A stretch of DNA of 64,000 nt, taken from the NCBI GenBank assembly GCA_964507045.1, contig CAZDOO010000001.1:1-64000 (forward strand), read 5' to 3'. Each line of letters begins with the position of its first letter. The stretch's first letter is position 1. The DNA comes from an uncultured Verrucomicrobiota bacterium (lineage in GTDB: Bacteria; Verrucomicrobiota; Verrucomicrobiia; Limisphaerales; UBA8199). The translations under genes and the position numbers were made by a program. Of the stretch, positions 43,100 to 45,662 are shown piece by piece. Below the pieces are notes generated by a model. It did no database searches, was not told the DNA's origin, and saw only the letters and a list, made by a program, of their open reading frames with translations.

Positions 43100-43395
43100 G
43101 CTTACTGCTCCCGAGGCCAACCGGCAAAGTCTAAAGCTCAAGGCGGAACGTGGACCCACTCACGGTCCTTGAGCGTTGAAGCAGTTGCCAAGGGCGCTTC
43201 TCTCCGTCACAGTAGGGGCGGATGAGCAAGCGCTTTTACATCACGACCGCCATTGACTACGTCAACGGCCACCCGCATCTCGGCCATGCCTATGAGAAGG
43301 TGGTCGCCGACGTCATCGCCCGCGCGCGCCGCAGCCTGGGACAGGAGACGTTCTTTCTGACGGGAGCGCGTGCAGAAAGTCCAGCGGGCGGCGAA
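43100..43395. repeat. left copy of an approximately 290 bp direct duplication (right copy 43984..44280) covering the metG upstream region and its first 55 or so codons
   Basis: Near-identical sequence gcttactgctcccgaggccaaccggcaaagtctaaag...gacaggagacgttctttctgacggg occurs at both positions, 884 bp apart. Confidence 0.85.
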
Positions 43396-43404
43396 GGATG
43401 AAGG
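43222..43404 (+). pseudogene. truncated duplicate of the metG 5' end
   Basis: [48 protein letters not shown] is identical to the MetRS N-terminus, then runs into unrelated sequence and a stop. Confidence 0.6.
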
Positions 43405-43422
43405 TCGAAGGATGAACCCGGC

Positions 43423-43968
43423 ATGAAGACCGACGCTCTTGCACTCCAGGCTGAACGGCGAATCCTCTCGGTCCGCAAGCAGAGAGTCATGCTGAGCGAT
43501 GATCTCGCCGCGCTCTACGGTGTCGAGACCAAGGCTCTGAACCGTGCAGTTAAGAGGAATGTCGAGCGTTTCCCAGACGATTTCATGTTCCAACTGACCG
43601 GCGAAGAGTGGGGTGACTTGAGGTGCCAGATTGGCACCTCAAGTTGGGGTGGCAGCCGGGTCCCGCCTTACGCCTTCACCGAGCAGGGGGTGGCTATGCT
43701 ATCCAGTGTGCTGCGCGGTTCCCGTGCTGTGCAGGTCAACATCGCCATCATGCGCGCCTTTGTGCGCCTGCGTGAAATGCTCCTCACCAACGCCGACCTG
43801 GCTCGCAAACTGGCCGAGTTGGAGCGCAAGTACGACACCCAGTTCAAGGCGGTTTTCGACGCTATCCGCCAGCTCATGGCGCCGCCGCCCGCGCCGCCTA
43901 AACCCGAAATCGGCTTCCACGTCAAGGAAGAGGCCGTTCCCTACCGGATCGGCAGGCGGCGGCGTTAG
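43423..43968 (+). CDS. ORF6N domain protein with ORF6C-like C-terminal domain
   Basis: [39 protein letters not shown] and [15 protein letters not shown] are ORF6N signatures. A C-terminal coiled region resembles ORF6C. Confidence 0.75.
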
Positions 43969-44105
43969 TCATCGCTGAGGCTTGCTTACTGCTCCCGAGG
44001 CCAACCGGCAAAGTCTAAAGCCCAAGGCGGAACGTGGACCCGCTCACGGTCCTTGAGCGTTGAAGCAGTTGCCAAGGGCGCTTCTCTCCGTCACAGTAGG
44101 GGCGG

Positions 44106-45662
44106 ATGAGCAAGCGCTTTTACATCACGACCGCCATTGACTACGTCAACGGCCACCCGCATCTCGGCCATGCCTATGAGAAGGTGGTCGCCGACGTCAT
44201 CGCCCGCGCACGCCGCAGCCTGGGACAGGAGACGTTCTTTCTGACGGGCCTGGACGAGCACGGGCAGAAAGTCCAGCAGGCGGCACTGGCGGCAGGCAAG
44301 ACCCCGCAGGCCTACTGCGATGAACTGGCGGCGGTGTGGCGGGCGTTCGCCGGCAAGTTGGACTTGACCAACGACGACTTCGTCCGCACCACCCAGGCGC
44401 GGCATAAACAGGTCGTGCAGGCGATCCTCACCAAGCTTCATGCCGAGGGGCACTTTTACAAGGAAGCCTATTCCGGTTTCTATTCGACTCGCCAGGAAAC
44501 CTTCCTGACCCATAAAGACCGTTTGCCGGATGGCACCTTTGACCCGTCCTGGGGGGAGGTCGTGGAACTCAAAGAGGAGAATTACTATTTCAGGCTCAAG
44601 GACCACCAGCAGTGGCTGATTGATCACATCGAGCAGAATCCGTCCTTCATCAGCCCCGCGCCGCGCCGGAACGAAGTGCTCGGCTTCCTTAAGAACAACG
44701 TGCTGGAAGACCTGTGCATCAGCCGGCCCGCCTCGCGCCTCAATTGGGGCATCCCGCTGCCGTTCGATCCCGACTACGTCACCTACGTCTGGTTCGACGC
44801 GCTCTCCAACTACATCACCGTACCCGCCGCCCAGGGCGATCCCGGTGTCCCGGAACCTTTCCGCCCTCAACCCTCAACCCTCAACGCTCAACTCCCCCTG
44901 TGGCCTGCCGACATCCACGTCATCGGCAAGGACATCGTGAAGTTCCACAGCGTCTATTGGCCGATCATGCTTAAGGCGATGGGCGCGCCGTTGCCCAAAC
45001 AGGTGCTCGTCCACGGCTGGTGGCAGAAGGACGGCCAGCGGATGAGCAAGAGCACCGGCAATGTCGTGGACCCGGTCGCGGTCATAGACGAGTGGGGCGT
45101 GGACGCGTTCCGCTTCTACGTGCTGCGGGAATTGGACATCGGCCCCGACGGCAACTGGACGGAGGCTGGGTTCAGGGCGCGCTACTCGGCAGAACTGGCT
45201 AACGGCCTGGGCAACCTGGTGAACCGCTCGCTCTCGATGCTCAAACGCTACCGCAACGGCGTCGTGCCCAAGGCCTCAAACGAACTGGCGCCAGACGCGG
45301 AGAAGGCAATCGCCGAAACCCGCAGCCTGCTGGAGCAGAACCAACTCCAGGGCGCGCTCCAGGCCATTTGGTCGCTGGTTACGCGGGCCAATCAGTATGT
45401 GGACCACACCGCGCCGTTCAAACTGGCCAAGGACCCTTCCCAGGCCGCGCGCCTGGATGAGGTCCTGTATAACCTGACAGAGGTCTGCCGGATTCTCGCG
45501 GTGCTGCTCTGGCCGTTCCTGCCAGGCACGGCGGGGAAGATTTACGCGCAACTCGGCCTGCCCGGCGAGCCGGACAAAGCCTCGGCGGCGCGCTGGGGCG
45601 GACTGCCGGCAGGGCATGCCATCGGGGCTCCCGCCCCGCTGTTCCCGCGAAAGGAGACCTGA
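44106..45662 (+). CDS. metG: methionyl-tRNA synthetase
   Basis: HLGH is the HIGH motif and RMSKSTGN is the KMSKS motif. It contains the in-frame heptamer tract PFRPQPSTLNAQLP. Confidence 0.9.
   Translation: MSKRFYITTAIDYVNGHPHLGHAYEKVVADVIARARRSLGQETFFLTGLDEHGQKVQQAALAAGKTPQAYCDELAAVWRAFAGKLDLTNDDFVRTTQARHKQVVQAILTKLHAEGHFYKEAYSGFYSTRQETFLTHKDRLPDGTFDPSWGEVVELKEENYYFRLKDHQQWLIDHIEQNPSFISPAPRRNEVLGFLKNNVLEDLCISRPASRLNWGIPLPFDPDYVTYVWFDALSNYITVPAAQGDPGVPEPFRPQPSTLNAQLPLWPADIHVIGKDIVKFHSVYWPIMLKAMGAPLPKQVLVHGWWQKDGQRMSKSTGNVVDPVAVIDEWGVDAFRFYVLRELDIGPDGNWTEAGFRARYSAELANGLGNLVNRSLSMLKRYRNGVVPKASNELAPDAEKAIAETRSLLEQNQLQGALQAIWSLVTRANQYVDHTAPFKLAKDPSQAARLDEVLYNLTEVCRILAVLLWPFLPGTAGKIYAQLGLPGEPDKASAARWGGLPAGHAIGAPAPLFPRKET
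44864..44898 (+). repeat. (CCCTCAA)3 plus degenerate units inside metG
   Basis: ccctcaaccctcaaccctcaacgctcaactccccc, encoding PQPSTLNAQLP. Confidence 0.9.

Follow-up and report, generated by a model that had tools for sequence, protein, structure and literature searches.

Why does a gene for an ORF6N-domain protein lie between two nearly identical copies of the start of an essential gene, and is this arrangement a fresh, excisable insertion or an old one that has been kept? The locus in question lies in a stretch of 64,000 nucleotides (nt) from an uncultured Verrucomicrobiota bacterium (contig CAZDOO010000001.1, positions 1 to 64,000; hereafter the window), where the ORF6N gene is flanked by direct copies of the 5′ end of metG, which encodes methionyl-tRNA synthetase. 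We refer to the structure as A-X-A, A being the duplicated metG segment and X the inserted cassette. An original prediction, made from the letters of the window alone, had read A-X-A as the product of homologous integration of a small circle carrying X and A, and had foreseen easy excision. Our favoured reading, to which we give a probability of about 60%, is that an ancient, promoter-less ORF6N cassette entered metG in one duplication-with-insertion, was then inherited vertically between repeats kept alike by gene conversion, and captured a promoter in the process.

The metG 5′ end is duplicated around an ORF6N gene

Self-alignment of the window showed that 265 nt at 43100-43364 recur at 43984-44248 with 99% identity (3 mismatches) and a spacing of 884 bp; together with its flanking parts, this is the duplication of about 290 bp of the metG promoter and 5′ coding region that had been predicted. 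After an 8-bp deletion in the left copy, positions 43364-43392 can be aligned with 44256-44284 at 90%. At the other end, GGCGGCGGCGTT(C/A)GTC occurs at 43081 and 43953, just upstream of both copies, and is followed by an 11-nt indel; the duplication probably starts 19 nt earlier than 43100, giving copies of about 312 nt (A_left) and 332 nt (A_right; coordinates in Table 1). While the interiors are 99% identical, the edges (the last 20-30 nt on each side) have decayed, in A_left through the 11-nt indel near 43099 and, after 43364, the 8-nt deletion and 3 substitutions. The duplicated segment, of about 0.3 kb, opens about 140 nt before the metG start and runs to codon 59. The insertion point is metG codon 57-58, and alignment of the copies revealed a short GC-rich overlap, GGCGG, at the right junction.

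The left copy encodes a truncated synthetase N-terminus, as had been claimed: residues 1-48 of its open reading frame (ORF) of 59 amino acids (aa), metG′, are those of MetG, HIGH motif included, with a match to the Pfam synthetase profile, and the remainder is a frameshifted tail whose stop codon lies 21 nt upstream of the ORF6N ATG. On the other side of X, the first bases of A_right encode the final codons and stop of ORF6N, and the rest of this copy is the leader and the first 59 codons of the functional metG. An exact look-up of the window MetG found no identical record.

Relatives with the same gene neighbourhood have neither the insertion nor the duplication. In contigs L168 and L169, whose MetG is 89% identical to that of the window, the gene order is that of the window (an ammonium transporter gene (amt), glnA, a DLH-type esterase gene, metG and a conserved gene of about 600 aa), with a single leader copy, no ORF6N and 135 nt between the esterase stop and the metG ATG. 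The contig of P0128 has the same amt-glnA-DLH-metG synteny, is likewise empty and has 48 nt in this interval, which measures 1956 nt in the window. In L162 the upstream gene is different, and the site is again single-copy and free of ORF6N. Because the syntenic relatives are empty and single-copy, as an insertion predicts, the insertion with its duplication is the derived state, and X is a foreign ORF6N gene inserted with duplication of the metG leader and 5′ coding region. No relative was seen with the duplication minus ORF6N, and none with ORF6N minus the duplication. In both window copies, similarity to the empty sites sets in 46-59 nt before the metG ATG; this region is probably a conserved leader or promoter region, its promoter function being putative.

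An assembly artefact, or a plain tandem duplication without an acquired gene, has in our view a negligible chance of being the explanation. The sequence is metagenome-assembled, and repeats often mislead assemblers; the two copies, however, can be told apart by 3 mismatches and 2 indels. Both junctions are also present in an independent Logan assembly (contig L001), and the same left junction is found in a JGI contig from a different metagenome (L165), so the structure is not an artefact of assembly. As to a tandem duplication, nothing in the empty-site relatives corresponds to X, which is a member of a widespread family.

The insertion is old and its repeats probably evolve in concert

Comparison with L165 dates the arrangement. 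The MetG proteins of L165 and the window are 93% identical (about 88% at the DNA level, a metG difference of about 12%), and L165 carries ORF6N in the same place, with an identical A_left-X junction down to the 8-bp deletion and three nearby substitutions. Synonymous divergence (dS) between the two is 0.56 for ORF6N and 0.59 for metG. Given the equal dS of the two genes and the shared junction, the insertion is not recent: A-X-A appears to have arisen in the common ancestor of the window and L165 lineages, and ORF6N to have been inherited vertically with metG since before these lineages split. With a ratio of nonsynonymous to synonymous divergence (dN/dS) of 0.23, set beside 0.06 for metG, ORF6N is under purifying selection. 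A check of the composition of the insert gave no foreign signature, its GC content of 0.59-0.64 being the same as that of the surroundings, with no anomaly.

Repeats that old are expected to differ by well over 10%, yet these differ by 1%, which argues for gene conversion between the copies. Moreover, three substitutions are common to both L165 copies and absent from both window copies, a signature of concerted evolution. The interior identity of the repeats is therefore best explained by gene conversion, and the decay would be limited to the edges because conversion rarely reaches repeat ends. Were the repeats to recombine, the cell would keep one viable copy of metG, yet the arrangement has been retained for long, which argues for selection for ORF6N. 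This retention, with a junction shared across a dS of about 0.6, also speaks against recent mobility and against easy excision as an important process.

The age of the structure also bears on the homologous (Campbell-type) integration of the original prediction, in which a small circle with ORF6N and the metG 5′ segment would recombine at metG by homologous crossover, yielding an A-X-A that can loop out again. Campbell insertion-duplications have the same A-X-A layout and are reversible by homologous recombination, and co-oriented repeats of about 300 bp around X are exactly what one crossover yields. The mosaic left copy, too, would fit a crossover inside A, as the junction-proximal part of this copy is as in L165 and the remainder as in the resident right copy. 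A Logan contig of 914 nt (884 + 30) with a 30-nt terminal overlap is compatible with a circle, but any collapsed repeat gives such a de Bruijn cycle. Against this, a circle carrying A needs a pre-existing A-X-A or tandem duplication, which leaves the origin unexplained; the structure is ancient and co-diverges with metG, apparently by vertical inheritance; no replicon, relaxase or recombinase is in evidence, and few homologues lie on plasmids or viral contigs; and other family loci duplicate unrelated host segments. We thus regard integration of a circle as an unlikely source of the structure. It could have spread the module among relatives, but it cannot create the first A-X-A.

ORF6N belongs to a widespread family of cellular genes

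The 181-aa ORF6N protein expected between the copies was recovered with a strong match to Pfam ORF6N (PF10543; 119.7 bits against a cut-off of 27.8, E = 6.9e-35), residues 13-96 aligning to positions 2-86 of the 86 in the profile. The ORF6C-like tail that had been described was not: there was no ORF6C hit at E <= 0.01, a sub-threshold Phage_pRha being the only match besides ORF6N, and the tail is one long predicted helix. Strong matches were obtained to PADLOC PDC-S05 profiles (PDLC04869, E = 8.9e-56; PDLC04856, E = 2.5e-52; PDLC04849, E = 1.4e-36) and to PHROG 4792, 'anti-repressor' (E = 7e-27). An AlphaFold model (pLDDT 76) consists of a small alpha/beta N-terminal domain and a C-terminal helix of about 50 residues (residues 100-152). 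A Foldseek search against the PDB gave nothing at E < 0.2, and its weak matches were winged-helix-like. A fold of this kind suits a DNA-binding protein that acts as a dimer and does not suggest a nuclease or recombinase.

For one representative of PDC-S05, described as having a RhuM domain, a preprint reports that the plating of phages T7 and T5 fell by about 1000-fold (10.1101/2024.09.26.614923). The window protein shares strong profile matches with PDC-S05 and with ORF6N (KilA-N/Bro/Rha-like) anti-repressor-type proteins, but the RhuM-domain representative is unlike the 180-aa architecture here, for which defence is a candidate role assigned by profile match.

Homologues 57-88% identical to the window protein occur across many bacterial phyla and in some archaea. 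The family had been put forward as typical of phages and integrative elements; however, a sequence pattern of the subfamily had 14 hits in 2.9 million viral contigs versus more than 599 in genome contigs and at least 600 in metagenome contigs, so that the subfamily is overwhelmingly found in cellular genomes. Plasmid homologues were rare and below 60% identity. At the locus itself, no recombinase, integrase, transposase or phage gene was found within about 10 kb (ORFs of 42150-43100 and ORFs checked across 33-56 kb), no phage structural or replication genes lie nearby, and the neighbours (amt, glnA, the esterase gene, metG and CorA-like genes) are housekeeping genes.

Elsewhere in the family, L077:2200-4911, L024, L080, L023 and L014 have two or three ORF6N genes in tandem, diverged to 50-78% identity. 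The contigs of most close homologues measure only 1-2 kb, as if assembly tended to stop near the ORF6N gene; this is consistent with a multi-copy or variable context.

A covarying palindrome lies inside the ORF6N gene

The ORF6N gene contains a perfect 13-3-13 palindrome, ACTTGAGGTGCCA-GAT-TGGCACCTCAAGT. Its position is conserved: of 162 loci (L002-L161), 152 have a palindrome with arms of 9-16 bp centred on the same codon, at nt 207 of the gene. Across 146 distinct sequences, arm positions were paired in 92.3% of cases, compared with 68.3% for shuffled partners (maximum 70.2%) and 16-29% for slid partners. At several arm positions, from two to four alternative Watson-Crick pairs occur and mismatches are almost absent, and the encoded residues change in step with the arms (S-V, C-G, F-G, F-E and S-A). 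A wobble test of the mismatch types (GT+TG, 19; AC+CA, 40) gave no sign of a sense-strand RNA hairpin, so that the palindrome is a DNA-level or antisense-level element tied to the ORF6N gene.

Some ORF6N genes have further palindromes of this type in the 0-400 nt upstream, numbering from one to five or more and each with its own covarying arms (L102:860-1130, with at least five next to a tRNA gene; L108:3880-3960; L040, L047, L052 and L036). In the rest of about 1 Mb of flanking DNA the type hardly occurs, and shuffled sequence has none. No palindrome of this type was found upstream of ORF6N in the window. We propose that the ORF6N protein is a dimeric DNA-binding factor whose cis site would be the palindrome in its own gene, and that the window copy may have lost the upstream palindrome that some relatives carry. 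Within the part of the ORF6N literature that we covered, nothing was found on mobility or on the palindrome.

In L165 (300-440, compared with window 43600-43665), about 19 additional codons replace or expand the palindrome region, whose palindrome is weaker there, and the rest of the gene is conserved.

Direct repeats of host-gene ends recur at other family loci

When the 700 nt before each ORF6N gene were compared with the 500 nt after it, direct repeats were detected at 29 of 149 testable loci, and inverted repeats at 2; in terms of repeat hits, 40 were direct and 2 inverted (binomial p = 4e-10). Under stricter criteria, repeats were present at 10/89 loci compared with 4/297 controls, which were windows shifted by 2-3.2 kb (Fisher p = 1.2e-4). 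Once tandem, low-complexity and REP-like cases had been discarded, six independent loci had an annotated host-gene end in the repeat (Table 1). Here the distance from the ORF6N stop to the right repeat is 2-34 nt, unless the ORF extends into the repeat; over the family, repeat lengths range from about 16 to 330 bp. Since the duplicated host segment changes from locus to locus, the explanation has to be a more general insertion process, one that generates duplications. Tandem ORF6N copies were rejected as target duplications (L024, L051, L080, L089, L120, L121 and L144).

The parB case, from Terracidiphilus, parallels the metG locus in having both occupied and empty sites. Here the cassette lies directly after parB, between duplicated parB 3′ ends of 31-88 nt (L138:1760-2580). 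The occupied sites (L138, L170-172 and L111) have a common X-A junction, and L173-176, with ParB 91-92% identical, are empty. The cassette borders a variable region that lies downstream of parB and contains restriction-modification genes.

Such repeats raise the possibility of a transposition-like insertion with widely staggered cuts, made by an enzyme acting in trans or by ORF6N itself, which is the main mechanistic rival. A precedent exists in the insertion sequences IS1634 and IS1549, which make direct repeats of 8-514 bp by a mechanism that is not known (PMC2266710). The ORF6N cassettes share with them flanking repeats that vary among loci in both length and sequence, and the right repeat starts 2-34 nt after the stop or overlaps the gene end. 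In one subfamily, in addition, the unit shared by copies 92-98% identical has constant ends (about -58 to +20..38) although its surroundings differ. In this recently spread subfamily, however, the repeats on the flanks consist of low-complexity sequence and are not adjacent to the unit, and about 89% of family loci have no repeat at all. IS1634 and IS1549 have a DDE transposase and terminal inverted repeats, whereas the ORF6N cassette has neither: no transposase gene is present, and in 7 cassettes the best terminal inverted match was not above shuffled controls. The predicted fold, a small DNA-binding domain plus a helix, has no nuclease or recombinase match. On balance we think staggered cutting quite unlikely.

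Integrase elements such as the dusA islands and e14 in icd leave direct repeats of a host-gene end and restore the gene that they interrupt. The metG structure could by analogy be a decayed integrase island that targeted the metG 5′ end, supplied a replacement 5′ end and promoter, and was reduced to ORF6N. The likeness is in the host-gene-end repeats and the gene that stays functional (the dusA elements restore a 5′ end and promoter), and the position of the Terracidiphilus cassette beside a variable region would suit an island. These elements, however, are kilobases long, with a tyrosine integrase and a short att core; the 'element' here is only 0.56-0.59 kb, one gene of 181 aa without any recombinase within 10 kb, no integrase or remnant of one in the window, ORFs at 42150-43100 that lack a Pfam match, and housekeeping neighbours. 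Repeated decay to one gene does not predict the same minimal arrangement at several unrelated loci, and the duplicated host segments vary by locus in the ORF6N family, unlike those of e14 and the dusA elements. We consider a decayed island highly improbable, less likely than staggered cutting.

How the cassette may have entered metG and may be expressed

In the reading that we favour, a single duplication-with-insertion, X would have been picked up at the join made by an unequal sister-strand exchange or a template switch, in a single event with the GGCGG homology at the right junction. The formation would be neither site-specific nor transposase-mediated. One repeat copy remained attached to the rest of metG, leaving the essential gene intact.

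The cassette carries only 30 nt upstream of the ORF6N ATG, with AAGGA 9 nt before the start, and in other contexts nucleotide homology among cassettes is limited to the ORF and a few tens of bases. As the cassette has no promoter region of its own, the left metG leader is the obvious promoter. It may transcribe a bicistronic metG′-ORF6N message, with ORF6N translated from its own AAGGA site, while the right copy would keep metG under its own leader; the duplication would then serve as a captured housekeeping promoter. ORF6N is co-oriented with the upstream gene at 86 of 129 family loci, an ordinary and uninformative proportion. Integron gene cassettes are likewise compact, promoter-less and single-ORF, and depend on an external promoter, but the ORF6N cassette has no 3′ attC or integron integrase, and its palindrome lies in the middle of the coding sequence.

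Several observations weigh against this account. About 930 nt of non-coding DNA between the esterase gene and A_left (42150-43080) are also missing from the empty sites, so that the history may comprise more than one event. The L165 contig is cut off 116 nt into the left copy, and we infer the full-length duplication in that lineage. Positions 43365-43405 and L165:85-125 are identical over 41 nt, where about 5 differences would be expected (p about 0.002-0.009); this stretch includes the metG′ stop codon and lies in surroundings that differ by 12-20% between window and L165, which points to constraint, such as coupled translation or a regulatory site, or else to some later exchange. A scan for sigma-70 consensus sequences and intrinsic terminators found neither promoter nor terminator. 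The microhomology at the junctions is short, and the one-step duplication-capture is hypothetical. Across the family, only about 11% of loci have flanking repeats, and the low-complexity or REP-like intergenic repeats in the flanks of L037, L044, L053, L128, L150, L092 and L084/L085 were rejected as target duplications.

Features of the locus and its surroundings

Table 1. Coordinates of features at the metG locus, and host-gene ends found within flanking repeats of ORF6N cassettes
Feature	Location	Strand	Remarks
A_left, left copy of the metG 5′ segment	43081..43392	+	Interior 43100-43364 99% identical to right copy
Copy 1 of the conserved 59-nt metG upstream region (putative promoter/leader)	43163..43221	+	Homology with empty-site relatives
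Truncated metG′ ORF, 59 aa	43222..43401	+	Pfam tRNA-synt_1g, E = 1.3e-13
Inserted cassette X: 30-nt leader with AAGGA Shine-Dalgarno-like motif, plus ORF6N body	43393..43952	+	
ORF6N-domain gene, 181 aa, PADLOC PDC-S05 member	43423..43968	+	Profile matches, fold model
Perfect 13-3-13 palindrome inside the ORF6N gene	43616..43644		
A_right, right copy of the duplicated segment	43953..44284	+	
Copy 2 of that upstream region, which serves the intact metG	44047..44105	+	
Intact metG, methionyl-tRNA synthetase, 518 aa	44106..45662	+	
metG 5′ end in repeat	Window locus		
parB 3′ end in repeat	L138		
dgkA 3′ end in repeat	L025		
plsY 3′ end in repeat	L131		
Mqo-like gene 3′ end in repeat	L017		
ERCC4-domain gene 3′ end in repeat	L161		

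The DNA upstream of A_left contains several repeats. Searched by BLAST against all fetched loci, 42150-43100 gave nothing but one REP-like hairpin. Two copies of a CRISPR-like repeat (GTTCTCCCCATCCCCGTGGGGATGGTCCG), 61 nt apart and the first of them degenerate, lie at 42975-43003 and 43035-43063, just upstream of A_left; we take the repeat to resemble those of type I-E. There were no more copies in the window, no Cas domain in the scanned ORFs and no Rfam CRISPR hit. A REP-like GC-rich hairpin occurs at window 42330-42401 and 47644-47668 and at L165:4250-4321, and at several intergenic sites in both genomes.

Long hairpins of short degenerate tandem units (ATCCCCCAGTA-like and AACATCC-like) lie at 42512-42648 and 45701-45796 and are possibly terminators; similar simple-repeat hairpins flank the ORF6N cassettes in L084, L085 and L094. 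An Rfam search of 41500-46500 (E <= 1) found no riboswitch or T-box in the metG leader; its only hits were microRNA families on the long hairpins at 42511-42649 and 45700-45797, which we rejected as spurious. Downstream of metG, an ORF of 653 aa (45669-47630) had no Pfam or NCBIfam match. Its orthologues have 592-599 aa and its first 130 nt or so overlap the intergenic hairpin; the true start is probably later than 45669.

Implications for metG and for the ORF6N family

The original prediction is right in part. A gene was acquired between duplicated metG starts, but the arrangement is ancient, selected and probably kept alike by conversion, not a fresh excisable element; it is a variant of known gene-end duplications. 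It would mean that a promoter-less candidate-defence gene can settle in the 5′ end of an essential gene, where a 0.3-kb duplication keeps that gene intact and lends a housekeeping promoter. Such an arrangement can apparently persist for long, with repeats homogenised by conversion, although simple recombination could delete ORF6N.

For the family, a broader idea is tentative and, in our judgement, rather unlikely: that ORF6N/PDC-S05 genes are minimal mobile cassettes of 0.6-0.7 kb, recombinase-less and promoter-less, with target duplications of very variable length (about 16-330 bp) at or in host-gene ends and, as cis site, the palindrome of the coding sequence, which some copies also carry in upstream arrays. 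If true, they would form a class so far unrecognised, and the metG locus would be one fossilised, domesticated insertion. That the ORF6N coding sequence is constrained by a perfect covarying palindrome points to a DNA-level function in mobility, autoregulation or defence, and the enrichment of flanking host-sequence duplications in a widespread, recombinase-less gene family is a testable lead.

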